From a virus: DNA of 16,043 bases. Positions 625-13,115 of this stretch are shown here, piece by piece. Position 1 is the first letter of the stretch; every line of letters begins with the position of its first letter. Below the pieces are notes generated by a model. It was given only the letters and a program-made list of their open reading frames with translations. It had not been told where the DNA came from and searched no databases. The translations under genes and the position numbers were made by a program. The stretch lies in the IMG/VR virus record IMGVR_UViG_3300033405_000009; one strand, 5' to 3'.

Positions 625-658
625 CTGGCCGGGCCGATTGTGACGGAGGATGAGCCGG

Positions 659-1063
659 TCAGAAGCCAGGAACACCTGCGCCGCCGCTGTGGCCCTGCGC
701 GGCCTCCTTCTCCTTCTGTGCGGTATCGCCGTCGATGAGCATGGTGTAGAACTCGTTCTCCGACAGGATCTTCCAGCCGTTGCGCTCGGCCTCGATGAGC
801 TTGGAACTCTTCTTCGGCTGCACGGTGCTGTTCGCGTTCCAGTCCTTGTTCGTGATGAGGAACCGCTCCCGGCCCCAAACGTTCTTCGGGCGCTCCTCGA
901 AGGCCCCACCCGCGCGCTGGATGATCGCTACGATCTCTTCGCGAGGACGTCCGAGGTGCCCCGTGATGGAGAACGTCTTGCCCTTGAGCACACCCGTGAT
1001 CTCCATCACGTCGATCACTGCCGCCAGATTCGCCTCATCCGTCTTCGTTCGTGCCATGTTCAT
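659..1063 (-). CDS. BRCT-domain protein (134 aa)
   Basis: The central segment GKTFSITGHLGRPREEIVAIIQRAGGAFEERPKNVWGRERFLITNKDWNANSTVQPKKSSKLIEAERNGWKILSENEFYTML matches the BRCT fold pattern as seen in the C-terminus of NAD-dependent DNA ligase: a GKT(F/V)(V/I)TG... segment, a hydrophobic core and a W-(K/R)-I-L/ee-F motif. The gene is GC-rich, has an ATG start and a GGAGG SD, and motif B lies upstream. Confidence 0.55.
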   Translation of the reverse strand: MNMARTKTDEANLAAVIDVMEITGVLKGKTFSITGHLGRPREEIVAIIQRAGGAFEERPKNVWGRERFLITNKDWNANSTVQPKKSSKLIEAERNGWKILSENEFYTMLIDGDTAQKEKEAAQGHSGGAGVPGF

Positions 1064-1078
1064 TTCCTCCGCGGTCGG

Positions 1079-1104
1079 ATACGCGCACTGCTGCGCAATT
1101 TACG
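1079..1104 (-). promoter_or_regulatory. Conserved promoter/leader motif, instance B: CGTAAATT-N12-GCGCGTAT-N9-GGAGG-N7-ATG.
   Basis: Plus strand shows ATACGCGC...AATTTACG. It sits upstream of the BRCT gene start at 1063. The spacer has the dyad TGCGCA..TGCGCG. Confidence 0.55.
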
Positions 1105-1110
1105 ACGCGT

Positions 1111-1611
1111 TCATTTGTCCATCACATCAGTAATGAATGATTCTCGAAGATCACCGCTGCCTTCTCGACAACAATCCTCGTATTCCTTGTATGGATCTAG
1201 AAACAGTCGCACCAGGATGAGATCCATTCCTACATCGAATTTGGAAGAACCGATAGATGCTTGTAGTAGCGCCCTTGGAACTGCGAGGTGTGCCATAACC
1301 CGCACATTTGGATCCTCAAAATCATGCGAGTCCTCTTTGCGTTGCGCAAGATGACGAAGGACTTTCGCAAGGTCAAATTTTCCTTCAAGGAGAAAGACTT
1401 CATCTTCCATCAGTTCATTGTCGGCATCCGGAAGATGGCTCTTAAGCAGCCACACGGATCTCCACTTTTGAATAAATGCGTGGAGAGCGTCTTCGGTTTG
1501 GACCTGATTCAGTTCGTTTAGATACGACTCCACGATCTCATTGGTTGCAGCAGCCCTATCTCGGTCAAAAGGAATGACCGGCAAGTCTAGCAAACACTTA
1601 TCTTTGATCAT
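1111..1611 (-). CDS. Hypothetical protein (~166 aa). The start is probably the internal ATG at 1611, which forms an ATGA overlap with the upstream gene's stop. The ORF track extends it to 1665.
   Basis: ATGGCTTCATGATCAAAG gives MAS* followed by MIK at the junction. It is an AT-richer small gene in a coupled operon. Confidence 0.45.
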   Translation of the reverse strand: MIKDKCLLDLPVIPFDRDRAAATNEIVESYLNELNQVQTEDALHAFIQKWRSVWLLKSHLPDADNELMEDEVFLLEGKFDLAKVLRHLAQRKEDSHDFEDPNVRVMAHLAVPRALLQASIGSSKFDVGMDLILVRLFLDPYKEYEDCCREGSGDLRESFITDVMDK

Positions 1612-2015
1612 GAAGCCATCACTTCCCAGCACATCCATTCCTTGTGAGTCAGGAATTGGATGCAATCTCCTGGTTCCGATGCCCTAAGGGCCTCGTAACA
1701 TTTGACAATCTGAGTAACATCCACGCCCGGAGGGATCGCAATTTTACACGGGTACCTCTGGTCGATCTGATCTTTGGTATCCTTGAGTCCGTATCCGAGA
1801 TGCTCTCGGAGAATCTTGATGCACTGAATCTTATTTACAGGATGCTTTGTGATCACGAGTGAACGTTGTGTGGCGTCGGGCATCCCCATGGCCACTGCAC
1901 CACGCCAGGCCGTCTTGCAAAAGACAATGAACTGTTCTTCGGTCAGAGTATCCGATTCTTCGGACAACTCCATGACCAGGTTTGTGTCACCCGTTACGCG
2001 CAGGTAAATCTTCAC
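1608..2015 (-). CDS. Small protein with a ribosomal L7/L12 C-terminal-domain-like segment (135 aa, GTG start).
   Basis: NKIQCIKILREHLGYGLKDTKDQIDQRYPCKIAIPPGVDVTQIVKCYEALRASEPGD resembles the L7/L12 C-terminal domain (K-IGVIK-VRE-TGLGLKEAKDLVD-AP...VSK--AEE-K--LE-AGA). The GTG start overlaps the upstream stop as GTGA. Confidence 0.4.
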   Translation of the reverse strand: MKIYLRVTGDTNLVMELSEESDTLTEEQFIVFCKTAWRGAVAMGMPDATQRSLVITKHPVNKIQCIKILREHLGYGLKDTKDQIDQRYPCKIAIPPGVDVTQIVKCYEALRASEPGDCIQFLTHKEWMCWEVMAS

Positions 2016-2410
2016 ACTTTCGGTACGCGCGCGAGCGCCGCATCTGCGGCTTTCTTGGCATCATGTTCATCTGGGCAAACACCTGATTCAATGGCTAGTC
2101 CGACCTCAGATCCCCAGACTCTCCAAGCCCAACCTTCTGGGTTTTTCCAAACCACCGCAGCAAGATTCCTAGAATCGCCAAAATAACAACGATCCCAAAA
2201 ATTCAACTCTTCATCGTGAGCCCATGGACCCGGCCTCCCATCGGAAGTGTCCACAATCTTAATTTGTACGTCTTCCGGAACTGTAACACTAGCTTCAACA
2301 GGTTGAGCCTGACGGGTCTTAGCCTCTCTCTTAGCTGCAGCTCGAGCTTTGAGCGATGCAGAAATTTTGGCAAGAGTTTCTGCGCTATGAACTACCTTCT
2401 TTTCTGACAC
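2012..2410 (-). CDS. YegP/DUF1508-like protein with a Lys/Ala-rich N-terminal tail (132 aa, GTG start).
   Basis: The C-terminal NLAAVVWKNPEGWAWRVWGSEVGLAIESGVCPDEHDAKKAADAAL matches the YegP repeat pattern (gewRwRL-a-NGeiia-SegY-sk-a-kaI). The N-terminus KKVVHSAETLAKISASLKARAAAKREAKTRQ is a basic A/K-rich tail. Confidence 0.4.
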   Translation of the reverse strand: MSEKKVVHSAETLAKISASLKARAAAKREAKTRQAQPVEASVTVPEDVQIKIVDTSDGRPGPWAHDEELNFWDRCYFGDSRNLAAVVWKNPEGWAWRVWGSEVGLAIESGVCPDEHDAKKAADAALARVPKV

Positions 2411-2500
2411 TCTCTGGCACCCTTCACATCTCCATTACATTCTGCACCATTGGCTCGTTAAACACTTCCATTACTCGTTCAGGTGGACATTTCAGGTCCA

Positions 2501-2866
2501 TCAACTTTCCAAAACGGACTTTACGAGCGCCTCATCCAGGATTTTTTGCATCTCATCCGGAGTGCGAATATGAATCAAGGCCTCGAAAAGATATGATGCC
2601 GTCGTATCTTCTTTGAAAGAGCGACCCTTCCCAAAAATGAAAATCTTCTTCCGAGGAGAATGTTTCTTAAAACGCCACTTATCGATTACGGATGAGACGA
2701 GAGGATAAGGAGTCCCCGGTTGACAACGAAAATCCGGCCAAATGGAAAGAGCTTCCCAAATAGCGAGATCATTAATTTGCATGCCAATGACGCTAGTATG
2801 CGAAATGTGAGCCGTCAACTGCTCCACTTTAGTGGAGAGTGTACCGAATAGAGAATCTTTCTTCAT
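2501..2866 (-). CDS. Hypothetical protein (121 aa)
   Basis: ORF in a coupled minus-strand array. It overlaps the upstream gene by 4 nt and ends in the C-terminal motif ...VLES. Confidence 0.45.
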   Translation of the reverse strand: MKKDSLFGTLSTKVEQLTAHISHTSVIGMQINDLAIWEALSIWPDFRCQPGTPYPLVSSVIDKWRFKKHSPRKKIFIFGKGRSFKEDTTASYLFEALIHIRTPDEMQKILDEALVKSVLES

Positions 2867-3186
2867 TCCTCCATCACTAGCTTTACAATCGCGTTGTCAG
2901 TGATATTTTTCATTTCCGTGCGCGTGCGAATGTATGCAACAGTCTGCATTCGTACTTTGTGCACGAACAGGAAGAGCGTAAATCCTCGCGCGTCGTCCGG
3001 TTTGCATCGCCACATGTCTACTACATCGGAGATGAAATACTTCGAATGCCCGTCTCTCATGCGCTGATTGTCTTGCGAGGTGACAAGCACAGTCCACAGT
3101 GCTTCATCAGTCACATCGACACCGACAATCCGAGCCTTCGGCAACCTGCGACGAAACTCCGCCACTCTGTCAGATACGAAACTCAT
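2863..3186 (-). CDS. Hypothetical protein (~107 aa; ATG at 3184-3186, 1-nt TGATG overlap with the upstream stop).
   Basis: ORF in the coupled array. TTGATGAGT lies at the junction. Confidence 0.45.
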   Translation of the reverse strand: MSFVSDRVAEFRRRLPKARIVGVDVTDEALWTVLVTSQDNQRMRDGHSKYFISDVVDMWRCKPDDARGFTLFLFVHKVRMQTVAYIRTRTEMKNITDNAIVKLVMEE

Positions 3187-3734
3187 CAAGCCACCATGAC
3201 ACCTTCAACTAGGATGAGATCCATCATTTCGATGATCTCATCTCGAGTTACGCCGTTTTCAAATGCCGATTTCAATGCCGGTTGAATGATGTCAAGCGCC
3301 ATCTTCCTTCCATGGGCGCGCTGCTTCTTCTCCGGTTCACCTCGATTGATGTAATCCACCAACTGATCATGAAATTTCTTCCCAGCCCCATTACTGATGA
3401 TTGCCTCGAAAATGGCGTGTCCGTATCCAACTTGACCCTTCAATTTCGCTTGGAGTTCTTCGGTTCCATGCTTCTGGAAGGCATGCATGAGTTTACTATC
3501 ATAGTCGTACCAGGTACGACTATCCATGATCTCATATACTGGAAGACGCAATTCGAGCTTAGGTTCAAACGGAGGAGTTGGATCGCCTTCAAGCACGAGT
3601 CTCACCAGAATCGAAGAGCCCGTCTTATTAACAGGTCTAATACTTTTGATTGAATATCGTGCAATGGCTGCATCCACCCGTCGATACTCGGGTGTTGCCA
3701 AGATCTTGGCTCTCCATTCTGCATCCGAAAGCAT
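3186..3734 (-). CDS. Hypothetical protein (~182 aa; ATG at 3732-3734).
   Basis: GGAGGATTGATG provides a strong SD 5 nt before the ATG. The SD spans the upstream stop. Confidence 0.5.
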   Translation of the reverse strand: MLSDAEWRAKILATPEYRRVDAAIARYSIKSIRPVNKTGSSILVRLVLEGDPTPPFEPKLELRLPVYEIMDSRTWYDYDSKLMHAFQKHGTEELQAKLKGQVGYGHAIFEAIISNGAGKKFHDQLVDYINRGEPEKKQRAHGRKMALDIIQPALKSAFENGVTRDEIIEMMDLILVEGVMVA

Positions 3735-3744
3735 CAATCCTCCG

Positions 3745-4095
3745 TCATGAGTTTAGGACAGATTCCACGATAGCTCGATTCAGGCGCTCTTCGAGTGCGG
3801 CATGCGGACCGATATGGATGGTTACATATCCACGCGAACGATCTCGAAAGGCAAACAGAGTCAGAGGGACCGCGTTTTTGTGTGCCTTCACATTGCGCCG
3901 GTCCCAAATCTTGCGAAGTTCCACAACGCTGGAAGCACTAACGGATTCATCCCGGCGGAGAACATTCCACACAGGAGAATCTACGTTCCAGACTTTGCAA
4001 TTCTTGGTAACATGACGGCGAAGAGTGTCCTCCAGCAATCCGATATTCTTCACTCGATCTAGGATTCCGGCAGAGTAATCCATACACCGACTCAT
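3745..4095 (-). CDS. Hypothetical protein (116 aa)
   Basis: ORF with an ATG start 1 nt after the upstream stop (TGAAATG). Confidence 0.45.
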   Translation of the reverse strand: MSRCMDYSAGILDRVKNIGLLEDTLRRHVTKNCKVWNVDSPVWNVLRRDESVSASSVVELRKIWDRRNVKAHKNAVPLTLFAFRDRSRGYVTIHIGPHAALEERLNRAIVESVLNS

Positions 4096-4096
4096 T

Positions 4097-4291
4097 TCAT
4101 GAGTTCATGATCATCCCAACCAGATACTCTTCCATGGAAATCGGTGACGGCCAACCCCAATTCCGATGCGGTGCGCACCTGCACAAATAAAGCCCGGCAA
4201 GGTAGTGGAACTGCACTTTTTCAGCACCACAAGGCTTCCCCCTGAGAGGACCGTGCTCGTAAATGTAATCACATTGGAATTTCTCAGGCAT
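4097..4291 (-). CDS. Small Cys-containing protein (~64 aa, MPEKFQCDYIYEHGPLRGKPCGAEKVQFHYLAGLYLCRCAPHRNWGW...). The ORF track's longer 128-aa version overlaps the VWA gene and the hairpin, so I trimmed it.
   Basis: ATG at 4289-4291 with a GGGTG SD-like sequence upstream. There are four Cys residues that could bind a metal. The 20-bp hairpin lies immediately upstream of it. Confidence 0.35.
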   Translation of the reverse strand: MPEKFQCDYIYEHGPLRGKPCGAEKVQFHYLAGLYLCRCAPHRNWGWPSPISMEEYLVGMIMNS

Positions 4292-4302
4292 GATCGCACC
4301 CG

Positions 4303-4347
4303 TGCAGTATATGGCAGGGATCATTGCGATCCCTGCCATATACTGCA
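4303..4347. promoter_or_regulatory. Perfect hairpin with a 20-bp stem and 5-nt loop (TGCAGTATATGGCAGGGATC-attgc-GATCCCTGCCATATACTGCA). It sits between the VWA gene stop (4353) and the next gene start (4291).
   Basis: Exact inverted repeat read directly from the sequence. No U-tract follows on either strand, so it is not a canonical intrinsic terminator. It could instead be an RNase III-type processing site, a protein operator or an attenuator. Confidence 0.6.
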
Positions 4348-4352
4348 GACTA

Positions 4353-5954
4353 CTAGAGCCTGCTGTTGCGGAGCGGAGCCACGCGCCCGAAGGAGGGCTT
4401 GTACTCCTTCGACTTGCGGGTGATGACCCACACCACGTCCATCCCAGAGGGCCTGAGCTTCTCGGGGACCACGCCGCAGTCACCGTCCGTGATGATGATC
4501 ACCACGTCGAACTCCTTCCCCAACTTCTCAGGGAACTCCGCGAAGAACTGATCGAAAACCGTGCCTCCGCGGCCGACGATCTTCGTCCGCTTGATGTCGC
4601 TCTTCTGCGTGACCCTCTGCACCTCGTCCCACTTCGGCGAGGCATCGCAGCAGACCAGATGACCCTCGGTGTTGTCTCCGAGGACCTGAAGTTGGGAAAG
4701 CCCATAACGCAGATCATCGTCGCTCATGGACCCGCTCGTGTCGATCATGGCAAGCCACCGAGGCATGTGGGTGTGCCGGCGAGGCAGGTACTGCTTGGGG
4801 GTGGCATTGAGCCACCGCCGCCGCAGACGCTTCCAATCGTTCTTCATGCCGGCGTCCTGCACCTTCCGCATGAGAGCGGACCGCACGATATCGGTGAACT
4901 TGAGGGTAGGCTTGTACAGCTCCCCGAGGACATCCTCGATGTCGCTGGGAACCGACCCACGCATCGTGACAGCAGCTTGCGCTGCTCTCATGACATCGCT
5001 CATCACCTCTTCCTTGGTGACGGCCGCCTGCATGTGGGCGTCCATAGACGACAAGGGATCGTGCGAGGAGCCGCACTTGGGGCAGCTGTGGTCTCCCGGG
5101 TCTCCGTGTCCATCCCCACACTGATGGGGACCTTGCCCTTGACCACCACCAGGCTGCTGCCCGTTCTGGCCCTGTCCTTGGCCCTGTCCAGGGCTCTGGC
5201 CCTTCTGACCAGGCTTCTGCCCCTTCCCACCCTGACCCTGCTGTCCCTGGCCCTGCTTCTTCGCCTTGCCGGTCTTGGGATCCATGGAGAGAGCGCCGCA
5301 CTGAGGACACTTGCGGGGGCTCTTGTCCCAATGCTTCATGATCTCTTCGTAGATGCTCTCGGGCGAGCGCCCGTGGAGCGTCTTATCCGCGAAGACGCGG
5401 GACTTGCCGTCATCGGGGATCTCCTGCTTGCCGTCGATGAAGGCGAGGAGCTCTGCGAAGGGGAGGGCCTCACCGAGCGCACCACCCCAGAGCTTGGGAC
5501 CCTTGAAGCCGGCCTTCTCACGCGAGATCTCGATCACCGCGTTGACAACGTAGTCGATGGCCCAGTTGAAGATCCGGGGGTTCATCCCGAGCCCACGCTG
5601 GCAATGGTAGAAGATGACGTGGTAACCTTCGTGCTCCATGACGACGGGAACCTCGTCGCCGTTGAGGCTCGCGAGGAAATCCGGATGCCAGTAGAACTTC
5701 TTGCCATCCGTGGCCGCCGTGGTGAACATCCCCTTCGGGTGCCCCGGCAACTCGTCGGCCAGCTCGTGCGGCTTCGGCGCCGTCAGCGCAAAGAGGAAGG
5801 GGTTACCACCGTTCGAAGGTTGGCGGTAGAGCCGCGTCATGCAATTGGTGATCTTGGTCTGAAGCTCCGCCAAGCGGGCGTTGTCGTAGGAGCCGTCCTC
5901 CTGCTTCAACACCATGCGCGGATCCTTGAGCCGTGCTCCGATCGTCGTCATCAT
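4353..5954 (-). CDS. VWA-domain protein with an N-terminal HExxH putative metallopeptidase domain (DUF2201/vWA-MoxR-associated type; CobT/ViaA-like partner of a MoxR ATPase), 533 aa.
   Basis: HEGYH zinc-peptidase motif near aa ~110. MIDAS motif DTSGSMSD and VVIIITDGD in the C-terminal VWA domain. Central split Zn-ribbon CPQCG...CPKCG. GC-rich, ATGATG start, and motif A with GGAGG upstream. Confidence 0.75.
   Translation of the reverse strand: MMTTIGARLKDPRMVLKQEDGSYDNARLAELQTKITNCMTRLYRQPSNGGNPFLFALTAPKPHELADELPGHPKGMFTTAATDGKKFYWHPDFLASLNGDEVPVVMEHEGYHVIFYHCQRGLGMNPRIFNWAIDYVVNAVIEISREKAGFKGPKLWGGALGEALPFAELLAFIDGKQEIPDDGKSRVFADKTLHGRSPESIYEEIMKHWDKSPRKCPQCGALSMDPKTGKAKKQGQGQQGQGGKGQKPGQKGQSPGQGQGQGQNGQQPGGGQGQGPHQCGDGHGDPGDHSCPKCGSSHDPLSSMDAHMQAAVTKEEVMSDVMRAAQAAVTMRGSVPSDIEDVLGELYKPTLKFTDIVRSALMRKVQDAGMKNDWKRLRRRWLNATPKQYLPRRHTHMPRWLAMIDTSGSMSDDDLRYGLSQLQVLGDNTEGHLVCCDASPKWDEVQRVTQKSDIKRTKIVGRGGTVFDQFFAEFPEKLGKEFDVVIIITDGDCGVVPEKLRPSGMDVVWVITRKSKEYKPSFGRVAPLRNSRL
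5100..5290. repeat. Low-complexity CTGGCCCTG-type simple repeat. It encodes a GQ/PGQ-rich linker (KKQGQGQQGQGGKGQKPGQKGQSPGQGQGQGQNGQQPGGGQGQGP) inside the VWA protein, between the two CxxCG halves.
   Basis: Imperfect tandem repeats are visible in the DNA and the protein. Confidence 0.6.
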
Positions 5955-5970
5955 TCACCTCCACACACCA

Positions 5971-5996
5971 ATACGCGCGCGATTGCGGAATTTACG
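5971..5996 (-). promoter_or_regulatory. Conserved promoter/leader motif, instance A: CGTAAATT-N12-GCGCGTATT-N7-GGAGG-N6-ATGATG.
   Basis: Plus strand shows ATACGCGCGCGATTGCGGAATTTACG. It lies upstream of the VWA gene start at 5954. Confidence 0.55.
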
Positions 5997-6012
5997 CGGC
6001 GAATGCGAGTTA

Positions 6013-6237
6013 TCAGCTTTCCAAAATTGCATTTACGATAATTTCCTCACAAGTGAGACGTACAACTTTACGAACATTCCAAGCATCCGTAGCAGGGGTT
6101 CTCAAATGAACTTCCATTTGCAAATCTACCGGCGGAAGCTCAGGATTCCAAGAGGAGGATTTACAATTGGAGCAAATCCACTCGGGCGGCAAAGGTTTGC
6201 CACCGGAAATGACCCCGCGCCGCCATACATGACCCAT
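6013..6237 (-). CDS. Hypothetical small protein (74 aa), ends ...ILES.
   Basis: ORF with an ATG start. It is the first gene of the AT-rich cassette downstream of motif A. Confidence 0.35.
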   Translation of the reverse strand: MGHVWRRGVISGGKPLPPEWICSNCKSSSWNPELPPVDLQMEVHLRTPATDAWNVRKVVRLTCEEIIVNAILES

Positions 6238-6272
6238 TGATCACAGTACGCTCAGCCACGCAGGATTTCTGC

Positions 6273-6707
6273 CTATTTCTCAATGGAGAAGGCCAACTTG
6301 AGTTTATCAAATTCAAACCATGGAGGTCTTCCTCGTTGATAGTTTATGAGTAAGGCTCCGGTTCTATATAAAATGAAAACGCGAGCATGCTCTTGTGGAT
6401 TAGCGAACCACTCAGCGAACTTCCTATTCTTGTAAGAATCTCCGATCTGTGGACCTAAGAGGTCAATGTATTCCTTTGACATAGCAAAAACTTTAACGGA
6501 TGCTTTACCGTTCCATCCCATTGAACGTGCCAATCGTACTTCTTCATCATCCATATCCGGAGGAATAGCAACTACCACGGCTCCCATGCTTGTTAATCGT
6601 AGGATTCGTGTCTCATTAGGGAGAATGACGTTGCGCATGATGATGTCAATCACCTTCTGGCGCTCTTCATCATTATCCATCAAACTTGCGGGTTTGTATT
6701 CGTGCAT
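6273..6707 (-). CDS. Hypothetical protein (~144 aa; ATG at 6705-6707, TGATG overlap).
   Basis: AT-rich ORF, translationally coupled to the upstream gene. Confidence 0.45.
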   Translation of the reverse strand: MHEYKPASLMDNDEERQKVIDIIMRNVILPNETRILRLTSMGAVVVAIPPDMDDEEVRLARSMGWNGKASVKVFAMSKEYIDLLGPQIGDSYKNRKFAEWFANPQEHARVFILYRTGALLINYQRGRPPWFEFDKLKLAFSIEK

Positions 6708-6910
6708 CACGATTCCATGATTTCAAAAATCAAGAATTCTTCATCGGTCAGTTTCTTCCATTTATTGCGATTATCATTCTCGGATAGCATCGCCATAACT
6801 GAGCTTGGATGACACTCTTCACAAAAGAGATCCATTACAACAAGATCGTTCTGATAGAAGTACTCGTATCCAAATGAGGCATCCTTCTCACATCGGTCAC
6901 ATTGAACCAT
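6707..6910 (-). CDS. Small Zn-ribbon-like protein (~67 aa; CDRCEK...CEECH).
   Basis: Two CxxC pairs. ATG at 6908-6910 overlaps the upstream stop as TGATG. Confidence 0.4.
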   Translation of the reverse strand: MVQCDRCEKDASFGYEYFYQNDLVVMDLFCEECHPSSVMAMLSENDNRNKWKKLTDEEFLIFEIMES

Positions 6911-7203
6911 CAATTCTCCATAGAACTACGTACGATTTCGAGATCACACTCTGTCTCATCATGGTGCAATTTCGCTGTAGACCAGTAGAAACCACCACAT
7001 CTTGAACATGTCTCCGGACTCGCTAATCTGGGAAGGGGTGAGAGTGATTTATATTCAGGATGAGGTGGCCCATACCAAATCACCCCAACCACGATTGCAA
7101 TTAATCCGGCGATGCAAAAGACGCCTCCGAAAATCGAACGTTCAGCCGCAGCCCATGCAATACCAAACAGGAAAATTGTGAACCAAACTGAAAGAATCTT
7201 CAT
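6910..7203 (-). CDS. Small membrane protein with two predicted TM helices (ILSVWFTIFLFGIAWAAA; IFGGVFCIAGLIAIVVGVIWY) and a Cys-containing soluble C-terminus. It may be holin-like.
   Basis: Hydrophobic segments with an ATG start. The start has a 4-nt ATGA overlap with the stop of the upstream gene 7200..7586. Confidence 0.45.
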   Translation of the reverse strand: MKILSVWFTIFLFGIAWAAAERSIFGGVFCIAGLIAIVVGVIWYGPPHPEYKSLSPLPRLASPETCSRCGGFYWSTAKLHHDETECDLEIVRSSMEN

Positions 7204-7586
7204 TTGGCGCCATTCCGAATCTTAAGCACTTCTGCATGAAGCACATCCAACGCGGCTCGCGTCCGACCAAGAAGAAGAGCATCGTCCGCTGGAACTACAA
7301 CTGCTACAATCAAACGACTTCGTTTCTTTTGACGAAACCGCTGGGCTTCCTTCGGTGAAGATTTTGATTGAAGATAGAGAGGACCGACATCAGTCTCTAC
7401 TACCACATCAATCCCACAAGCATCTTCCGCTTTAGTCGCTAGACGTACGCTCGTGATCCACGCACGACCCGTGTTCAATCCCTGCGCGCCGAGTGTGGCG
7501 AGGTTTTGTACCGCATCGACAAGCCGACGCTCTGAGACTTGACCGCGCTCATTTGAGACATGCCCGAGTAGTTTAGAGACTCTCAT
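7200..7586 (-). CDS. Hypothetical protein (128 aa). GIDVVVETDVGPLYLQSK may be a PD-(D/E)xK-like motif, which is weak evidence.
   Basis: ATGA overlap with the upstream gene. Confidence 0.4.
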   Translation of the reverse strand: MRVSKLLGHVSNERGQVSERRLVDAVQNLATLGAQGLNTGRAWITSVRLATKAEDACGIDVVVETDVGPLYLQSKSSPKEAQRFRQKKRSRLIVAVVVPADDALLLGRTRAALDVLHAEVLKIRNGAK

Positions 7587-7765
7587 GTATCCAGCACCGA
7601 GCGTACAATTTCAAGAGTTGGATCTTCCAAACAATCGGATTGGACCCATTCTCGCCAGTCAAAATAATATGGGCGAAGCCCATTCATTTCGGCTTTGCAC
7701 TTAGAGCAAACATATTCATAATCCAGGTCCAGTTCCAGAACTGGTTGCCAGTCGTGCGCTGTCAT
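7583..7765 (-). CDS. Small Cys-containing protein (~60 aa, MTAHDWQPVLELDLDYEYVCSKCKAEM...). The ORF track's TTG-extended start at 7816 is less likely.
   Basis: Internal ATG. The long structured non-coding region lies upstream. Confidence 0.35.
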   Translation of the reverse strand: MTAHDWQPVLELDLDYEYVCSKCKAEMNGLRPYYFDWREWVQSDCLEDPTLEIVRSVLDT

Positions 7766-8045
7766 CCGGATTGATTTTACAGACAGACGAGAAGCCCGAA
7801 GCCGGGACCATCCCAAGCTACGGGCTTCTCTGGAGGCAACGCCATGCCTGGCGCCGACCTTCTTAGGGCCAACAGGCCCGAAATTACGAGCGGGAAATTT
7901 ACCAGTGATCTCTAGACGCCTCCCGCTCTACTAGGCGACGCCGAATCTTTCGATTCGACCCTGGGGAACCTGTAACGACCCGAGAGACGCCGGGTGATCC
8001 CATTGGCTTGCCCATCGATCACCCGTACGCGCGCGATCGAGCGAT
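7766..8045 (-). other. Highly structured non-coding region. It is a candidate ncRNA or a long regulatory 5' leader, transcribed from the motif variant at 8011-8040.
   Basis: About 230-280 bp with no ORF. It holds several perfect inverted repeats: GAGAAGCCCG...CGGGCTTCTC (10 bp), GAGCGGGA...TCCCGCTC (8 bp), CGGGTGATC...GATCACCCG, GGGCCaacaGGCCC, and a CCGAATC-tttc-GATTCG hairpin (GAAA tetraloop on the minus strand). Confidence 0.35.
8011..8040 (-). promoter_or_regulatory. Variant of the conserved motif (TAGATC-N12-GCGTAC) with no coding gene directly downstream.
   Basis: Plus strand shows CCGTACGCGCGCGATCGAGCGATCTATG. It has the same 12-nt spacing and GCGTAC box as instance F. Confidence 0.35.
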
Positions 8046-8240
8046 CTATGTAGTCTTCTTTGGCAGCCGTCGTACATTTTTGCATTTAGTGACTAAGATC
8101 ACTGAATTCATCTTGTCAGCTTTCACAGAGCACTCATCTCCGGATATTTCCATTACTTCTCCAGTGAGACTGCGGTGAGGTCCGGTTCTAATGTGAACCT
8201 TATCAGACACTTTGATGGGGACAATTGCCATACGCGCCAT
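8046..8240 (-). CDS. Small KOW-like domain protein (64 aa).
   Basis: IVPIKVSDKVHIRTGPHRSLTGEVMEISGDECSVKADKMNSVILVTKCKNV follows the KOW pattern (G-D-V-V-i--GpF-g--G-V-ev-----v-V-----------V---vek) seen in NusG C-terminus/L24-type proteins. The start overlaps the 3' end of the HNH gene. Confidence 0.35.
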   Translation of the reverse strand: MARMAIVPIKVSDKVHIRTGPHRSLTGEVMEISGDECSVKADKMNSVILVTKCKNVRRLPKKTT

Positions 8241-9117
8241 ATGAAAAATTACAATTATGGCATAGAACTCGATAACCAGTCGGGAATTTATTCTTGATCA
8301 ACCATTTCTGGAAAACGTTGCCCCTCTTGTCGATTTCCTTGCGATGATCATTTCCTCCACCGTGGATGTGATCAATCGCGAGAACATCAGTATCTTTGAC
8401 GGCACAACATGCACAAGATGGAATGGGAGCGCTGTAGTGAACTAGACATTCCATCTTGATCTTGCAATCGTAGGCATACTTTGCAAGAGCCATCTTCTTC
8501 AAGTCGACGGGATATGGCACTCCCTCGATGATTCGAGTCTTAAACGAATTAGTCTCATCCCAAATCTTGTTTTCAAAGGCTTTGCGTTGAAGTCGCAAGG
8601 ATTCTTTGCCGTTACAATTATGGCAAAGGACTCGATAACCGGGCGGGAATCCGGATTTCTCGAGCCATAGCAAATATCGCTCGGTTTTGCGACCGAGGAA
8701 CTCACGATGGATGTTGCCTCCACCCGTGATGTGATCTAGGCAGAGGAAGCGGAGCTTCAACTCCTCACACAAGAAGCACTTCGGGATTCCACCAGAGTAA
8801 ACGCCATAAACGCGAACTCTGATGTCCTCACGCCTATCCTTCATCTGCGCGAGGACGTCTTCCTTATTCTCTGCGTAATATTTGGCGTTGTACGCAGAAG
8901 CCTTATCGGGATTGGCTAGCTTGAATTGGCGGGTCTTTTCTTGACTCGCCTTCGGGTCAGCTGCGTATCGCGCCGCCCGTGCATCCTTATCACACTGGAT
9001 GCACTTGTACGTATATACGTCACGACCTTTGTAGGTATATGCCTTATATCGACGGAATCCCTCATCTAGAGATTGGATCCCATGAATACGACAAGCCCGG
9101 GTCGGTGTGTTGGTCAT
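8203..9117 (-). CDS. HNH endonuclease with two tandem HNH/Zn-finger modules (304 aa).
   Basis: Two copies of C..C...DH(I)xGGGNxHR...FPxGYRVLCHNCN: CLDHITGGGNIHREF...RVLCHNCN and AIDHIHGGGNDHRKE...RVLCHNCN. The gene is AT-rich. It is a paralog of gene 12453..13115. Confidence 0.75.
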   Translation of the reverse strand: MTNTPTRACRIHGIQSLDEGFRRYKAYTYKGRDVYTYKCIQCDKDARAARYAADPKASQEKTRQFKLANPDKASAYNAKYYAENKEDVLAQMKDRREDIRVRVYGVYSGGIPKCFLCEELKLRFLCLDHITGGGNIHREFLGRKTERYLLWLEKSGFPPGYRVLCHNCNGKESLRLQRKAFENKIWDETNSFKTRIIEGVPYPVDLKKMALAKYAYDCKIKMECLVHYSAPIPSCACCAVKDTDVLAIDHIHGGGNDHRKEIDKRGNVFQKWLIKNKFPTGYRVLCHNCNFSYGAYGNCPHQSV

Positions 9118-9147
9118 GCTGAGAACCTAACACCAACCCGGGCTTGT
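9091..9147 (-). promoter_or_regulatory. Long imperfect hairpin that encloses the HNH start codon and SD (ACAAGCCCGGGT(T/C)GGTGTT...loop with AGGTTCTCAGCATGACC...AACACCGACCCGGGCTTGT).
   Basis: 12 perfect bp plus 5 more bp of stem seen in the sequence. The ATG at 9115-9117 lies in the loop. The hairpin sits 20 nt after the MoxR stop. Confidence 0.55.
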
Positions 9148-9168
9148 GGCAAGATTACTGAGTGTGGA

Positions 9169-10287
9169 TCACTCGTCCTTCATCGCCTGACGAATTTTGA
9201 GGAATGCCTCCATGAACGGGGCCACCTTCGTGAGCTTGTGGTCCTGAATCATCTTCATGTTCATGACGCTCTTCGCAGCACCGATGCAGAACTCCGAGGG
9301 GAGCTTGCGGAGCCACCCGAACACGTTGTCCGTGGTCTTGTGGAGCTTACGCTCGTGCGCCTCCTTGTCGGAGCCGGAGGGCGTCACGCGGCAGAGGGCC
9401 GCCACGGCGTTCACGGCGGAGATGGCGCAAACGAACTGGCGATCGATCTCCATCTTGTCGAGATCGGGGTGCTTGCCCTCGCGGACCAGCGCCTCGATGA
9501 GCGGCTCGATGTGGCGGTAGTGCTCCAGCCACACCTTGAACTTGACCGCGGAAGCCATCCCCACGCGACCCGCCACCAGCATCGTCTGGAAGTCGACACT
9601 GGAGAGGTGGCGCTCCGAGCCGTTGGTGAAGTCCAGGTCCTTCGCCGCCAAAGTCCACGCGCGAGGCGAGGGGTGGCAATACGCCGTGGAGTCGCCCTCG
9701 GGCGGGGGCATCAGGAGCTGCTCCTGATTCTTGCTGAGGAACCCGACGATGAGGGGGTTGACCCCTGCGCCCGTGGCCCACTCCTGCCACGGCTCGAAGG
9801 CGTGCGTCACGCGGTAGACGCCGCACCGATTGGTGAGGGCGTGCGAGACGGGGAGCGAGAAGGCACCCTCGTCAGGCAGGTTGCCCGTCGCGATGACCGC
9901 GTGGATGTTCATCTTGCGACCGTTCATCGCACGGAACTGGAACAGCTCGAGGCAGGGGTTCTGCAGCTCGGGCTTGGCCTTATCCACCTCGTCCACGAGG
10001 AGGATCACCGGCCGCTCGTCCTTGTTGTAGAGCGGGATGGTCTCCGGCGGAGCATAGGTCGTCTTGCCGTTCTCCACGAGAGGCAGACCGATCATGTCGG
10101 GTGCCTCCAGGACGGAGAGGTTGAGGTAGACGTAGCGAAACTTCTCGTTCTCGCACGCCTGCATGGCCATCTCGGTCTTGCCGATACCGGCCGGGCCGAA
10201 GGTCATGAGATTGCCCCCGGTCCGAATCGTGAACTGCAGCACCTTCATGAGGTGCGCCTGATCGAGCTCCGTAACACCAGTTAGCAT
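9169..10287 (-). CDS. MoxR-family (AAA_5) AAA+ ATPase, CobS/RavA-like (372 aa).
   Basis: Walker A FGPAGIGKTEMA. Walker B VILLVDEVDKA. Sensor-1-like HAVIATGN. The length and single-AAA architecture are typical of the MoxR/CobS class. GC-rich, with motif C and GGAGG upstream. Confidence 0.75.
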   Translation of the reverse strand: MLTGVTELDQAHLMKVLQFTIRTGGNLMTFGPAGIGKTEMAMQACENEKFRYVYLNLSVLEAPDMIGLPLVENGKTTYAPPETIPLYNKDERPVILLVDEVDKAKPELQNPCLELFQFRAMNGRKMNIHAVIATGNLPDEGAFSLPVSHALTNRCGVYRVTHAFEPWQEWATGAGVNPLIVGFLSKNQEQLLMPPPEGDSTAYCHPSPRAWTLAAKDLDFTNGSERHLSSVDFQTMLVAGRVGMASAVKFKVWLEHYRHIEPLIEALVREGKHPDLDKMEIDRQFVCAISAVNAVAALCRVTPSGSDKEAHERKLHKTTDNVFGWLRKLPSEFCIGAAKSVMNMKMIQDHKLTKVAPFMEAFLKIRQAMKDE

Positions 10288-10308
10288 GAGTTATTGCCTC
10301 CGATCCGC

Positions 10309-10335
10309 AATACGCGCGGATTCGCCGAATTTGCG
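10309..10335 (-). promoter_or_regulatory. Conserved promoter/leader motif, instance C: CGCAAATT-N12-GCGCGTATT-N8-GGAGG-N9-ATG.
   Basis: Plus strand shows AATACGCGCGGATTCGCCGAATTTGCG. The dyad ATCCGC/GCGGAT flanks GCGTATT. Confidence 0.55.
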
Positions 10336-10385
10336 GATGCGGACCGCACCTTCTTCATGGGAATTGTACCGTACATCTTCACGAC

Positions 10386-10568
10386 TCACGACTCCATTAC
10401 CTTGGAAACAATTGCATCTTCACAAGTGGGATTGATTTTGAGCCAAGCTTGAGCCGAAGGACTCCAATTGTCACCATGCTTATTCCACTTGAGCCAGGAA
10501 TCGCACCAGCTACAGTGATAAGTCACCTGGTCATCCTGCGAGTATTGGTACCCCCAAGTATGTTCCAT
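10386..10568 (-). CDS. Small Cys/Trp-rich protein (~60 aa, MEHTWGYQYSQDDQVTYHCSWCDSW...), ends ...VMES.
   Basis: The ATG sits 1 nt after the upstream stop (ATGGAGTCCTGAGATGG). The SD is embedded in the upstream gene's last codons. Confidence 0.4.
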   Translation of the reverse strand: MEHTWGYQYSQDDQVTYHCSWCDSWLKWNKHGDNWSPSAQAWLKINPTCEDAIVSKVMES

Positions 10569-10569
10569 C

Positions 10570-10779
10570 TCAGGACTCCATAACCGTTGCCACAACGTGG
10601 GCTTTATGAAGTTCTCCAATTCGTTCAAACCAAGGTGAAATGTCCATCCCGCGACGGAAAGCGATGGCTCTCAATTTCTCAATATCTGCCGTAGTGGGAT
10701 TGGCTTCCATCTTTGAAATCAATTTCTCAAAAGCAGGAGTCTTCCAGTCCCGATCTTTAGGAGATCTCTGCCGGCTCAC
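10570..10779 (-). CDS. Hypothetical small protein (69 aa), ends ...VMES.
   Basis: ORF with an ATG start. Confidence 0.35.
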   Translation of the reverse strand: MSRQRSPKDRDWKTPAFEKLISKMEANPTTADIEKLRAIAFRRGMDISPWFERIGELHKAHVVATVMES

Positions 10780-10868
10780 GATTCGAGGACCTCTGCTACG
10801 AGAAATTCTGCGTGGGTGAAGGTTTCTACGGGGGTAGATGATTTATGCCGGAATTGGGAGCCGTCCAC

Positions 10869-11468
10869 CTAGTTCTCCATCAATGTGGCGACTTGTGCCT
10901 CTTTCAGGAGGTCTTGAATTTCCTCCATAGTCCATCCGCTTTGAATACGTTGAATGAACGTCTTGTAAAGACTCTTGCGTTGCTGAGCCTTTATACGATC
11001 TGCAGTCTCTTGGATGCGTCCTCGCATTTTACGCACCTGCGTTTTATTAGTGAACGCCGCTTTGCATGCATCCAGGACCGCATCATTCAATGCGCTGGCT
11101 TTCTTTGGCAAGACAGCCTGCACGATTTCTGCGAGATAATTCATGCGGGTGTCGTTCGTGCCTAGCGTCGACCCCATATAGTGGCGAACGACATGGAAGA
11201 CGCCTTGACTACCCAAAGCCACGATGATCGGATAATTCCGATTCCAGACCATCTTAGCCACGGCATACGGCTTTGTGCCCTCAAGACGCAATTCTGCGCC
11301 TTTCACCTTGCAGTGATGGACGTACCACGCAGCAGCTAGAAGGGCATTCTCGGTCCCTTCTGGGTCATGGTATCCCCGAATCGCATGAATCCATTTCGGT
11401 TGTCCTTGCAGAACCCTAGCCAGCCGCCTTCGAAACATCTTTTCGAAGAAAGCCTCAGCTTTGAGCAT
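10869..11468 (-). CDS. Hypothetical protein (~199 aa; ATG at 11466-11468, 2 nt after the upstream TGA, with a GGAGAG SD inside the upstream ...LES codons).
   Basis: TTGGAGAGTTGAACATG lies at the junction. Confidence 0.45.
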   Translation of the reverse strand: MLKAEAFFEKMFRRRLARVLQGQPKWIHAIRGYHDPEGTENALLAAAWYVHHCKVKGAELRLEGTKPYAVAKMVWNRNYPIIVALGSQGVFHVVRHYMGSTLGTNDTRMNYLAEIVQAVLPKKASALNDAVLDACKAAFTNKTQVRKMRGRIQETADRIKAQQRKSLYKTFIQRIQSGWTMEEIQDLLKEAQVATLMEN

Positions 11469-11470
11469 GT

Positions 11471-11683
11471 TCAACTCTCCAAGATTTGGAACACGACAGC
11501 TTCTGGATTAGAAAGAACATCTTCGTATATATACAGATACTCCGGTTCCGGTTGATGCTTCTTGCATCTATGACACCAATTCCCTCGAAATTTCAAGTGG
11601 ATGACCGGTGGATTAGTACAGAAATGCTTCTCATCGTTGATGATGGCATCGCACAGTGCCCAGTTCCAACACGACTGAACCAC
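11471..11683 (-). CDS. Small Cys/His-rich (Zn-binding-like) protein (70 aa).
   Basis: Contains C..C...C..HRCKKH. It abuts the stop of gene 11683..12351. Confidence 0.4.
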   Translation of the reverse strand: MVQSCWNWALCDAIINDEKHFCTNPPVIHLKFRGNWCHRCKKHQPEPEYLYIYEDVLSNPEAVVFQILES

Positions 11684-12351
11684 TATGACTCCAAAACGTC
11701 AGCCACGGCGAATTCGCGCAGAGCCTCGCGCAGTACGTCATCTCCGAGAAAGGAGAACTTGCAGAGGACTTCCCGTACGTCGCGCATGCAGAAGTTAACG
11801 AGAGCCGACTTCTTCTCGGCCTCGAAGGCCTCATTGACCTCGAAACCTGGGTTGTACATAACAGCCCAGGCCTCCTCGTTCAGCCGCTTTTCGGCTGCGA
11901 GCCTATCTTCCTTGAAGATTTCATCGACGTGATTACGTCCCCAGCTGGAGAAAGACTGAGCATCCTTGCGACCGCGCTGCTTCTTCTTGTCCACGGACGT
12001 GCCGAAGACCGTCTCCGGTTGGCAGTTGAATGTGGGGACACCGCCCTCCTTACCGAAGTGCTTCTTGGCGATGATATCGAAGTCTGCATCCTCCGCGAGC
12101 CGCCACGTGCTGAGATGGCAGTTGCCGTTCGTCCCACCTCGGTTGAAGGTGGCCTCCGGATGGAAATTGGTGTGGAAGACGACGCTTGCATAAGGACGCA
12201 TCGGATTACCGCGTTCGTCGTGGGTCTTCAGCTCGAAGGTGTGGCGTGTGATGCGCGCATTCTCGTACTTGGCACGGATTGAAGCGAGCAGCTCCTTACC
12301 TTCCGCCGTGTCGAGGAGAAGCTTGTAAATCCTATCGTAACTCGATGCCAT
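11683..12351 (-). CDS. Hypothetical protein (~222 aa, starts MASSYDRIYK). GC-rich. The ORF track's N-terminal extension to 12411 is rejected because motif D and GGAGG sit right before the internal ATG.
   Basis: CATATG at the start, with GGAGG 8 nt upstream. It contains HxD...H-like residues (KTHDE...FHTNFH), but I cannot assign a family. Confidence 0.5.
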   Translation of the reverse strand: MASSYDRIYKLLLDTAEGKELLASIRAKYENARITRHTFELKTHDERGNPMRPYASVVFHTNFHPEATFNRGGTNGNCHLSTWRLAEDADFDIIAKKHFGKEGGVPTFNCQPETVFGTSVDKKKQRGRKDAQSFSSWGRNHVDEIFKEDRLAAEKRLNEEAWAVMYNPGFEVNEAFEAEKKSALVNFCMRDVREVLCKFSFLGDDVLREALREFAVADVLES

Positions 12352-12371
12352 ATGACAACCTCCGCGATCGA

Positions 12372-12396
12372 ATACGCGCCGATCCGCGAGATTTTT
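12372..12396 (-). promoter_or_regulatory. Conserved promoter/leader motif, instance D: AAAATC-N12-GCGCGTATT-N8-GGAGG-N8-ATG.
   Basis: Plus strand shows AATACGCGCCGATCCGCGAGATTTT. It lies in a divergent intergenic region that also feeds the plus-strand HNH gene. Confidence 0.5.
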
Positions 12397-12452
12397 GCCC
12401 GATCTATTCAATTGTACAGATCGGTTAGAACTCTAGTACGGATTACAAAGAG

Positions 12453-13115
12453 ATGAAGTTCAAAAGATGTTCCAGATGCCGTAAGAAAAAACAAATCAAG
12501 GGCAATTTCACAATTCACAGGAAAAATCATGATGGATTGAGTGCATGTTGCAAAGATTGCAATAAGACCCGTGTTCGAATTCTAAGAGCCAAGAACCCGA
12601 ATGAACACAAGGAAGCCTCAAGGCTTTCTCGGTTAAGACGGAAGCTTCGAGTAATGACTCACTACTGTGGTGGAAAACCTCCCGAATGCGCGTGTTGCGG
12701 TGAGAAAATATTGGAATTTCTCACCATGGATCATATCAACAATGATGGAAATCAGCATCGTAGGAAAATTCCCAGAAATGAATGGGGAAGGATGGTAGGT
12801 TGGCTGGAAAAACATAATTTCCCGCCCGGATTCCAGGTTCTCTGCTGGAACTGCAATTGCGGTAAGAGCCATGATGGGATCTGTCCACATGTTAAATCCG
12901 TTTCTCTTTCATCCTTACAGAAACCAGATCCTGCTACCGCAGGACTTAAACAGCGTGAACGGAAATTAGTACAAAACGGGACCCACTATCTCTGCAAGAT
13001 TCACGGACCTGTGCTATTGAGAGATTGTTATGTGCGACTTGAAAAGCGACGAAATTATTCGAGTTATCGATGCAAAGAATGTGTTCGAATTCATAACAGT
13101 CACAGATACTCTTGA
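12453..13115 (+). CDS. HNH endonuclease, single module plus a C-terminal Cys-rich extension (220 aa). It is a paralog of gene 8203..9117.
   Basis: CACCGEKILEFLTMDHINNDGNQHRRK...FPPGFQVLCWNCNCGKSHDGICPHVKSV parallels the AIDHIHGGGNDHRKE...FPTGYRVLCHNCNFSYGAYGNCPHQSV block of the 304-aa protein. Its C-terminal CKIHGP...YRCKECVRIH resembles the N-terminal CRIHGI...YKCIQCDKD of the 304-aa protein. Confidence 0.7.
   Translation: MKFKRCSRCRKKKQIKGNFTIHRKNHDGLSACCKDCNKTRVRILRAKNPNEHKEASRLSRLRRKLRVMTHYCGGKPPECACCGEKILEFLTMDHINNDGNQHRRKIPRNEWGRMVGWLEKHNFPPGFQVLCWNCNCGKSHDGICPHVKSVSLSSLQKPDPATAGLKQRERKLVQNGTHYLCKIHGPVLLRDCYVRLEKRRNYSSYRCKECVRIHNSHRYS

Follow-up and report, generated by a model that had tools for sequence, protein, structure and literature searches.

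Why do the genes of a MoxR-clade AAA+ ATPase and its VWA-domain partner lie 3214 nt apart in a phage genome? NorQ-NorD, CbbQ-CbbO, RavA-ViaA and midasin are MoxR-clade ATPases with MIDAS-containing VWA partners, and the original prediction for the 16,043 nt stretch of DNA analysed here (IMG/VR record IMGVR_UViG_3300033405_000009; hereafter the window) held that two such genes, normally neighbours, had been split by an AT-rich cassette. The window is part of the genome of a huge uncultivated phage; sequence identical to it was found on contigs of 28–98 kb, and its relatives are 180–436 kb in size. The split pair is real, but represents fairly ordinary phage mosaicism. We consider it likely that the pair is a system of the phage N4 gp24/gp25 type, ancestrally adjacent yet organized as separate transcription units, in which the spacer has turned into an accessory-gene hotspot, and whose function would resemble that of NorQ-NorD, CbbQ-CbbO and midasin.

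The gene at 9169..10287 on the minus strand encodes 372 aa, as predicted, and on sequence criteria its product is a MoxR-clade AAA+ ATPase related to N4 gp24. It scored 27.7 bits against Pfam AAA_5 (cut-off 22), and its Walker A (GPAGIGKT) and Walker B (LLVDE) motifs are intact and invariant in 19 homologues. The MoxR clade is defined by a beta-hairpin insert in helix 2 and a pre-sensor-1 hairpin (PMC7159879), and the protein shows both elements. The partner gene, at 4353..5954 on the minus strand, encodes a gp25-like protein of 533 aa that passed the cut-offs of two models, in the order DUF2201_N (79.9 bits, cut-off 23.2, E 3e-22) and the VWA-like DUF2201 (43.1 bits, cut-off 26.4, E 5.5e-11).

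This partner had been described as an HEGYH zinc-peptidase domain and a MIDAS-containing VWA domain, with a zinc ribbon between them whose halves are split by a low-complexity linker, and each part of that description was borne out. HEGYH occupies residues 108–112, the MIDAS is complete (D405/S407/S409/T465/D490) in a predicted VWA fold, and CPQC (216–219) and CPKC (291–294) stand on either side of a G/Q-rich linker of approximately 70 aa. The HEGYH, MIDAS and Cys4 residues are invariant across 21 homologues, among which the Cys4 linker varies in length from approximately 10 to approximately 150 aa. Together, the Cys4 ribbon and its disordered, hypervariable loop make up an insertion, specific to this clade, that separates the zincin from the VWA domain; the ribbon probably serves as a structural zinc clasp for a flexible tether. 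For the DUF2201_N plus DUF2201 family, we found no proven peptidase activity in the literature for any member.

Families and motifs identify the two proteins as a MoxR-clade ATPase and a VWA/metallopeptidase partner. Judged by sequence family, its closest known counterpart is gp24 (an AAA ATPase) and gp25 (a vWFA protein) of phage N4 and the N4-like phages (Schitoviridae), and not CobS/CobT, the phage homologues named in the original prediction. The best PHROG matches of the ATPase and the VWA protein were 1297 (E 4.7e-42) and 1314 (E 5.9e-59), the same families that hold the N4 pair, and far stronger than the partial match of the ATPase to the CobS-type PHROG 249 (‘porphyrin biosynthesis’; residues 15–115 only, E 1.3e-9). 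A cobaltochelatase-type auxiliary metabolic pair could be read from that partial match and from the fact that CobS/CobT pairs, known from cyanophages and from other phages, likewise combine a VWA protein with an AAA_5-type ATPase. Such a role is extremely improbable, as CobS/CobT pairs fall into other PHROG families, a search of the window pair for CobS and CobT Pfam domains found none, and the zincin domain of the window partner is missing from CobT.

The N4 pair has the same two-gene architecture, order and strand as the window; gp25 has the same DUF2201_N plus DUF2201 architecture (E 3e-87 and 1.4e-46), and gp24 falls just under the AAA_5 and AAA cut-offs. The window and N4 proteins are only approximately 25% identical, and the window’s phage genome is several times the size of that of N4. 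N4-type partners, at approximately 380 aa, have roughly 200 aa from HExxH to MIDAS and no Cys4 site, whereas the window VWA protein has 292 aa over the same interval, which includes the Cys4 ribbon with its long, disordered loop. The function of gp24/gp25 is likewise unassigned (PMC2784036).

A pair with an N-terminal metallopeptidase is already known from jumbo phages: in ‘group 2.2’, a MoxR ATPase is paired with a vWA co-chaperone that has a metallopeptidase fused at its N-terminus (Iyer et al. 2021, Viruses 13:63, PMC7824862). The window pair fits this description; that report does not mention a split of the two genes, a Cys4/loop insertion or a promoter motif, all of them features of the window. 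The role proposed there is virion assembly and processing (PMC7824862). In the window, as in N4, the neighbours of the pair are small genes of early/middle type and genes with DNA-related products (a BRCT protein, nucleases), a setting that does not point to morphogenesis. By analogy with NorQ-NorD, CbbQ-CbbO and midasin, we infer a physical interaction in which the VWA domain would dock onto the ATPase ring, its MIDAS metal allowing it to capture an acidic residue of a putative client protein that would be remodelled by ATP hydrolysis and then cut by the zincin. The NorQ-NorD, CbbQ-CbbO, RavA-ViaA and midasin proteins are 12–17% identical to those of the window, and the VWA partners in those systems act on defined enzyme clients and have no protease domain, whereas the window partner has a zincin domain.

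Gene order among relatives shows that the two genes are normally neighbours, as had been supposed. In 84 of 99 related loci the two genes shared a strand, with the ATPase gene upstream; the gap was no more than 300 nt in 45 of the 84 (≤100 nt in 29, 101–300 nt in 16), 301–1000 nt in a further 25 and more than 1 kb in 14. N4-like phages vary in spacing too: N4 has 167–171 nt, MIF8 approximately 0.9 kb, and VBP47 5 kb that include an HNH gene. The pair is co-conserved: at least 21 pairs of ATPase and VWA homologues had a longest contig of equal size, and both proteins lose identity to their homologues in step (73/63, 72/69, 60/58, 55/60 and 42/45%).

Groups with ≤39% VWA identity nearly always had a gap of ≤100 nt. 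Among the 14 relatives with ≥44% VWA identity, 11 had a gap of approximately 1 kb or more in the same place as that of the window (995, 2898, 2779, 3788, 3543, 2330, 1206, 3306, 2439, 1199 and 2151 nt), and the remainder had gaps of 217, 573 and −1 nt. Across the window’s subclade of 180–436 kb phages, gaps span 0.2–3.8 kb, mostly approximately 1–3.8 kb, a range confined to this subclade, and their contents are non-homologous from genome to genome. Large gaps with unrelated contents in this subclade argue that the split is a derived accessory-gene hotspot, and not one foreign insertion. A spacer like that of the near-adjacent relative L017 (223 nt, with a terminator-like hairpin and a promoter-like motif) would, in the window’s subclade, have become a site of repeated accessory-gene gain and loss.

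Linkage of the pair is not absolute: the 8 kb preceding the VWA gene contained no ATPase gene in L009 (398 kb) and L093, and five distant loci had their best ATPase match downstream of the VWA gene (3.5–7.8 kb away in four). L009 and L093, together with the separate transcription units of the two genes, might be taken to mean that the proteins no longer cooperate, through functional uncoupling or another partner for the ATPase. We regard this as highly improbable, given that in all other subclade members the two genes agree in order, strand, promoter-like motif and GC3, that the two proteins diverge in step, and that the catalytic and MIDAS residues are all invariant.

Each gene had been credited with its own copy of a shared promoter motif, and a full, promoter-like composite was indeed found at both start codons, 14–20 nt 5′ of the ATG and followed by GGAGG. 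Upstream of the ATPase gene it reads GCAAATTC-N11-CGCGTAT-N-GGAGG (10298..10334, minus strand), and upstream of the VWA gene GTAAATTC-N11-CGCGTAT-N-GGAGGTGA (5959..5995, minus strand). The composite motif occurs six times in the window against 0.07 expected, and all six copies precede the window’s six highest-GC3 genes (GC3 0.62–0.90); CGCGCGTA has four copies on the minus strand, against 0.3 expected. A partial motif (CGCGCGTAC; 8025..8049, minus strand) has a weak upstream half, with no GGAGG or ATG downstream. The composite motif was also found upstream of the ATPase gene in L001, L005 and L008, and upstream of the VWA gene in the same three loci and in L009 and L016. It is clade-specific and promoter-like, with a putative promoter role, although it could be an operator or a 5′-UTR element. 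Because both genes have kept this motif, and each a strong ribosome-binding site, their expression is probably still coupled.

The island between the two genes comprises seven genes, including a nuclease, and approximately 440 nt of non-coding DNA; a nuclease and a structured region had been foreseen, but the count of about eight small genes besides was too high. The island was seen at 99.97–100% identity on contigs from two separate samples. The small genes, all on the minus strand, encode 60 aa from an internal ATG (7583..7765; CxxC...C pattern, tail ...IVRSVLDT, absent from the public gene call), 128 aa (7200..7586), 97 aa (6910..7203; hydrophobic N-terminus, CxxC, tail ...IVRSSMEN), 67 aa (6707..6910; CxxC...CxxC, tail ...LIFEIMES), 144 aa (6273..6707) and 74 aa (6013..6237; CxxC...C, tail ...IIVNAILES). 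Family searches with the island’s small proteins, those of 128 and 144 aa included, gave no match. Throughout the window, a V-x-x-V-M-E-S tail ends approximately 60% of the proteins.

The structured non-coding stretch (7770..8025, minus strand; MFE −119 kcal/mol, z −4.9) is closed by a terminator-like hairpin at approximately 7785–7830 on the same strand (hairpin z −5.0). Searches with it found no Rfam family, no tRNA and no homologue in related loci, and the public gene call is empty at 7587–8202. The gap has a GC content of 0.48, against 0.63 and 0.62 for the ATPase and VWA genes, which are GC-rich as described; GC3 is 0.89 and 0.82 in these two genes and 0.34–0.59 in the window’s accessory genes. 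The island is therefore AT-rich only relative to the ATPase and VWA genes: the window’s other accessory genes have the same composition, and the two flanking genes are the compositional outliers.

The island’s nuclease (304 aa; 8203..9117, minus strand) is a putative double His-Me finger (HNH/EndoVII-like) protein, in line with the original prediction, with two repeats that are 45% identical and each contain C-x2-C...DH-x-GGGN-x-HR...C-x-N-C-N. It matched PHROG 2255 ‘HNH endonuclease’ (E 1e-4); no Pfam family matched at E ≤ 0.01 and no curated HNH-type model passed, the second repeat reaching Endonuclease_7 at only E 0.14. Of its 594 homologues, the majority are without a Pfam match, one matches PF02945 and several match PF05265; a paralogue lies at 12453–13115 on the plus strand. 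The gene stands between the ATPase and VWA genes in the window, as does its homologue in L117; L115 and L007 have a homologue upstream on the other strand, L007 has one downstream of the VWA gene as well, and in L123 one lies 4 kb upstream. Most other loci have none. This sporadic, position-variable occurrence beside conserved genes is that of homing endonucleases, and the protein is probably a free-standing one, which may aid the exchange of flanking DNA between co-infecting phages.

Genes for free-standing homing endonucleases, and hyperplastic regions flanked by conserved genes, are known from T4-like phages. The window resembles them in having an intergenic nuclease gene beside a conserved gene, sporadic and variable in position among relatives, and islands of small ORFans between conserved anchors with contents that are unrelated across genomes; it differs in that its nuclease family is poorly annotated.

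The nuclease gene begins 51 nt past the ATPase stop codon, and HNH genes follow the ATPase gene in L117 and in Vibrio phage VBP47 too, where an HNH_3 gene unrelated to the window’s nuclease comes directly after it. These positions, and a GC content below that of both flanking genes, would suit one recent, nuclease-driven insertion of a mobile element that split an adjacent operon, the 3.2 kb being a single foreign cassette. Such an event is unlikely, as the comparable gaps of the 11 close relatives have unrelated contents and mostly lack the nuclease, the composition of the gap is that of accessory genes window-wide, and the island’s small genes share their C-terminal tail with genes outside the gap. 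The shared tail argues that the small genes are native to the phage lineage, and the notion of one odd AT-rich insertion has to give way to that of an accessory-gene hotspot.

Coupling of MoxR-vWA pairs to variable effector modules is known (PMC7159879). Just as the MoxR-vWA ‘ternary’ conflict systems of bacteria carry hypervariable effectors, the island genes might supply the MoxR-VWA-zincin system with variable clients or effectors; the subclade’s variable island always lies between the ATPase and VWA genes, and most island proteins have the shared tail with its conserved Glu. We consider this very unlikely. The tail is just as common on genes outside the island and is missing from outgroup phages that carry the pair, similar variable islands separate other conserved genes within the window, and the island proteins are without a family match. 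No VMAP, inactive STAND, FtsH or beta-propeller, the alternatives for the third conserved component of a ‘ternary’ system (Kaur et al. 2020), was found among the genes between and around the pair.

Directly 3′ of the VWA stop codon lies a perfect 22-bp hairpin (4300..4350, minus strand; −43.4 kcal/mol, z −9.5). A miRNA-like match at this site, on both strands, was rejected as spurious; the hairpin, which has no U tract, is terminator- or processing-like.

The gene at 9169-10287 on the minus strand encodes a 372 aa protein of the MoxR clade of AAA+ ATPases, which matches Pfam AAA_5 (27.7 bits, cut-off 22) and, in the PHROG search, PHROG 1297 ‘ATPase’ (E 4.7e-42). Its partner, a VWA-zincin protein of 533 aa encoded at 4353-5954(-), contains DUF2201_N (E 3e-22; ‘putative metallopeptidase’ in Pfam) followed by DUF2201 (E 5.5e-11; ‘VWA-like’), and matches PHROG 1314 (E 5.9e-59). 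The PHROG 1314 label, ‘HNH endonuclease’, has been passed on to many RefSeq phage records and does not fit the domains found; it is an evident mislabel, because gp25 of phage N4 (3165-4307 of the RefSeq locus) shares both Pfam domains with the VWA protein and bears this label too. Tblastn against phage records recovered relatives of both proteins at approximately 25% identity, mainly from N4-like phages (‘N4 gp24-like’) and also from some jumbo phages. By the PHROG search, CobS/CobT, the analogue named in the original prediction, is more distant than the N4 gp24/gp25-type families. Neither protein had a relative in the PDB by sequence search, and the whole window, compared with 50,697 phage records by Megablast, gave no match. 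A scan of genome contigs matched only three MAG contigs, which are probably mis-binned phage and gave neither a host assignment nor gene-order data from bacteria. NCBIfam and PADLOC yielded no meaningful matches, and hence no link to known defence systems.

A pair of this kind with an N-terminal metallopeptidase has already been described in the group 2.2 jumbo phages, where it was proposed to act as chaperone and co-chaperone in virion assembly (Iyer et al. 2021, PMC7824862). In N4-like phages the function of the pair is listed as unknown (PMC2784036), and no functional data on DUF2201 or N4 gp24/gp25 were found in the literature searched. Few phage gene pairs that lack a known function are as widely conserved as the N4 gp24/gp25 type, which occurs in N4-like phages and in a number of jumbo and huge phage lineages. 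The pair studied here is a variant of this described system, distinguished by a Cys4/loop insertion and a split arrangement, and we hold its identity and linkage with high confidence.

The original prediction raised the question of whether the two genes are neighbours in related genomes, and for the most part they are. Among 99 non-redundant loci, each with a gene for a relative of the VWA protein, 84 have the ATPase gene upstream of the VWA gene on the same strand, at distances of up to 100 nt (29 loci), 101-300 nt (16), 301-1000 nt (25), 1-2 kb (3) or more than 2 kb (11). In N4 itself, 168 nt separate gp24 from gp25. Of the eleven gaps longer than 2 kb, eight fall in the window’s subclade, its own branch of related huge phages with at least 44% VWA identity and contigs of 180-436 kb; eleven genomes there have gaps of 995-3788 nt, and three others have 217, 573 and -1 nt. 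In groups at 39% VWA identity or less, almost all loci have adjacent genes. Adjacency is therefore general and probably ancestral, and the large spacer is derived within the subclade. The linkage is strong rather than absolute, as the VWA gene lacks an ATPase gene within 8 kb in two subclade loci (L009 and L093).

An assembly artefact does not explain the cassette, since the window sequence that includes it is 99.97-100% identical on contigs from two different samples. Nor does a single inherited insertion account well for the pattern: spacer contents show essentially no homology from genome to genome, which points to a hotspot of gene turnover. That the spacer is such a hotspot for accessory genes, located between the members of the pair, we consider a well-supported reading. 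The split reported in the original prediction was correctly observed, and the interpretation given there is partly supported. What the split reflects is a hotspot of accessory genes lying between two genes that are promoted independently. Such a split is ordinary mosaicism in phages, and nothing at this locus overturns current views.

The contrast in composition between the pair and the cassette is likewise genuine; its direction is not that of an AT-rich intruder, as the cassette, at 48% GC, resembles most of the window. Six genes, including those for the ATPase and the VWA protein, have GC3 values of 0.62-0.90, and every other gene in the window lies at 0.34-0.59. The same contrast between pair and gap is present in every relative that has a gap, and the AT-rich relative L026 has a pair that matches its genome in composition, with a GC3 of about 0.2. 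The genome contains two sharply different gene classes, as do related genomes.

The six GC3-rich genes share a composite motif, G[CT]AAATTC - N10-12 - CGCGTAT - N5-11 - GGAG(GTGA) - ATG, of which the window holds six copies (587-623, 1067-1103, 5959-5995, 10298-10334, 12360-12396 and 14383-14418, all on the minus strand) where 0.07 would be expected. All six copies lie on the coding strand directly before these genes, the other genes lack the motif, and relatives conserve it in front of the two genes of the pair. The motif is a clade-specific promoter-like element accompanied by a strong ribosome-binding site, and we infer that it acts as a promoter. It is unlike a sigma-70 promoter, and scans for sigma-70 promoters and intrinsic terminators gave results at or below chance. 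In one relative (L017), in which the pair is 223 nt apart, the spacer includes a terminator-like hairpin followed by the motif; the two genes therefore form separate transcription units even when adjacent, so that DNA can enter between them without harm. A gene set with its own motif and extreme GC3 offers a handle on temporal class in an uncultivated phage.

Genes at 1-12411 are nearly all on the minus strand. Behind the VWA stop codon lies a perfect 22 bp inverted repeat (4300-4350; -43 kcal/mol, z -9.5, no U tract), a hairpin that extends over position 4324, where the next gene is called to start. The ATPase stop codon has no structure behind it, making read-through into the nuclease gene plausible. 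The word GATGTACGG recurs behind some stop codons, but no more often than expected by chance.

That the pair retains its linkage, orientation and apparent co-regulation despite kilobases of changing DNA between its members argues for a joint function. In an alignment of the VWA protein with 21 homologues (identity down to 47%), the HExxH residues H108, E109 and H112, together with H117, are invariant, as are the residues of the VWA metal site, the MIDAS (D405, S407, S409, T465 and D490). As all catalytic residues are conserved, both predicted activities, ATPase and zincin, are probably live. If the pair works like NorQ-NorD, CbbQ-CbbO and midasin, its VWA domain would bind to the ring formed by the ATPase and use the MIDAS metal to grip a client, which ATP hydrolysis would then remodel; the fused zincin would add a cutting step. 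We put this model forward tentatively, at slightly less than even odds. The pair sits among small early/middle-type and DNA-related genes (a BRCT protein and nucleases), as it does in N4, a setting that suits a role in host takeover or the replication phase at least as well as one in virion assembly.

The same alignment revealed four invariant cysteines, C216/C219 and C291/C294, and between the two cysteine pairs a G/Q/P/D/K-rich segment that ranges from ~10 to ~150 residues among the 21 homologues. The AlphaFold2 model (mean pLDDT 78.5) is confident outside residues 235-288, which are predicted to be disordered (pLDDT below 50). These cysteines are missing from N4 gp25 and from the homologue in Vibrio phage VBP47, in which HExxH and MIDAS are only ~185-195 residues apart and a short G/D-rich loop occupies the corresponding position. 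The two-CxxC form has a spacer of 250-420 residues and is shared by the window’s subclade with a further group of large phages (~29% identity). A large huge-phage branch of the family possesses an invariant Cys4 site that clasps a hypervariable, disordered loop.

The island between the two genes (3214 nt, minus strand) encodes a 304 aa protein, has approximately 440 nt with no convincing ORF, and contains six small genes (60, 128, 97, 67, 144 and 74 aa). The 304 aa protein is composed of two repeats, 45% identical, each with the His-Me finger (HNH/EndoVII-like) signature C-x2-C ... DH-x-GGGN-x-HR ... C-x-N-C-N. It passes no curated model (Endonuclease_7, E 0.14; PHROG 2255, E 1e-4), and belongs to a family of ~600 members, mostly unannotated, many of which are also ~300 aa long. 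A single-domain paralogue on the opposite strand, at 12453-13115(+) and 42-48% identical to each repeat, sits between two conserved genes. Homologues immediately follow the ATPase gene in one related locus (L117) and, on the opposite strand, immediately precede it in two (L115 and L007); L007 has another behind its VWA gene, L123 has one 4 kb upstream, and the other loci have none. The distant VBP47 has an unrelated HNH_3 gene directly after its ATPase gene. Such sporadic occurrence at shifting positions next to conserved genes is typical of free-standing homing endonucleases, which the 304 aa protein probably is.

Within the island, a structured stretch of ~250 nt at 7770-8025(-), which folds far better than shuffled controls (z -4.9), begins just after a partial motif (8025-8049) and ends in a terminator-like hairpin at ~7785-7830. 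Searches of the window for tRNAs and Rfam families gave nothing credible, no homologue of the stretch was present in related loci, and blastn and nhmmer searches of all loci with the stretch and the whole cassette matched only the identical contigs. The region 7770-8049(-) could encode a lineage-specific small RNA. The genes of the island and the flanking genes had almost no matches in PHROG or Pfam.

A more interesting lead than the split may be a C-terminal tail, [VI]-x-x-[VI]-[ML]-[ED]-[ST]-stop (consensus V-x-E-V-M-E-S), found in 17 of the ~28 genes of the window (about 60%). It is carried by minus-strand ORFs at 13755-14375, 11683-12351, 11471-11683, 10869-11468, 10570-10779, 10386-10568, 7583-7765, 6910-7203, 6707-6910, 6013-6237, 4097-4324, 3745-4083, 3186-3734, 2863-3186, 2501-2866, 1608-2015 and 1111-1632, and by one on the plus strand at 14947-15249; it is missing from the ATPase, the VWA protein, both nucleases and the BRCT protein. 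The tail also ends 71 ORFs in nine related huge-phage loci (including L001, L005, L016, L117 and L125), ‘-ES’ outnumbers every other C-terminal dipeptide in the subclade by a wide margin, and none of the outgroup loci scanned (L124, L126, L015, L019, VBP47 and N4) contained the tail. An embedded GGAG ribosome-binding site does not by itself account for the tail: the wobble positions of its codons vary, Ser is encoded by both TCN and AGY, and several copies have no coupled gene downstream, so that selection acts on the peptide. It may be a C-terminal tag, acting as a degron, targeting signal or hub-binding motif; the literature searched held nothing on a C-terminal tag of huge phages. Conceivably, the MIDAS of the VWA-zincin reads the tail through its conserved Glu or terminal carboxylate, which would make the pair a tag-directed remodelling or proteolysis machine and the island a store of its clients. 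A phage-encoded MoxR-VWA-zincin would then mature or clear the phage’s own early accessory proteins. This link is speculative, because outgroup phages possess the pair and not the tail, and we think it very unlikely.

Just before the tail, the products of 6013-6237, 6707-6910, 6910-7203, 7583-7765 and 10386-10568 (all minus strand) have a CxxC ... C-[ED] pattern. From their sequences these small accessory proteins look like a family of zinc-binding paralogues, and one of them weakly matches PHROG 21735.

The small BRCT-domain protein is encoded at 659-1057(-), with the promoter-like motif and a GC3 of 0.84; it is kept in four relatives (L005, L007, L008 and L009), where its gene lies a few kilobases downstream of the VWA gene. 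The syntenic block comprises a 206 aa gene, a 222 aa gene, and the ATPase, VWA and BRCT genes. Four plus-strand ORFs, at 4290-6041 (583 aa), 9073-10284 (403 aa), 113-643 (176 aa) and 650-1354 (234 aa), were rejected as antisense shadows of GC3-rich genes; one of them mirrors the BRCT gene and for that reason yields tblastn matches in relatives.
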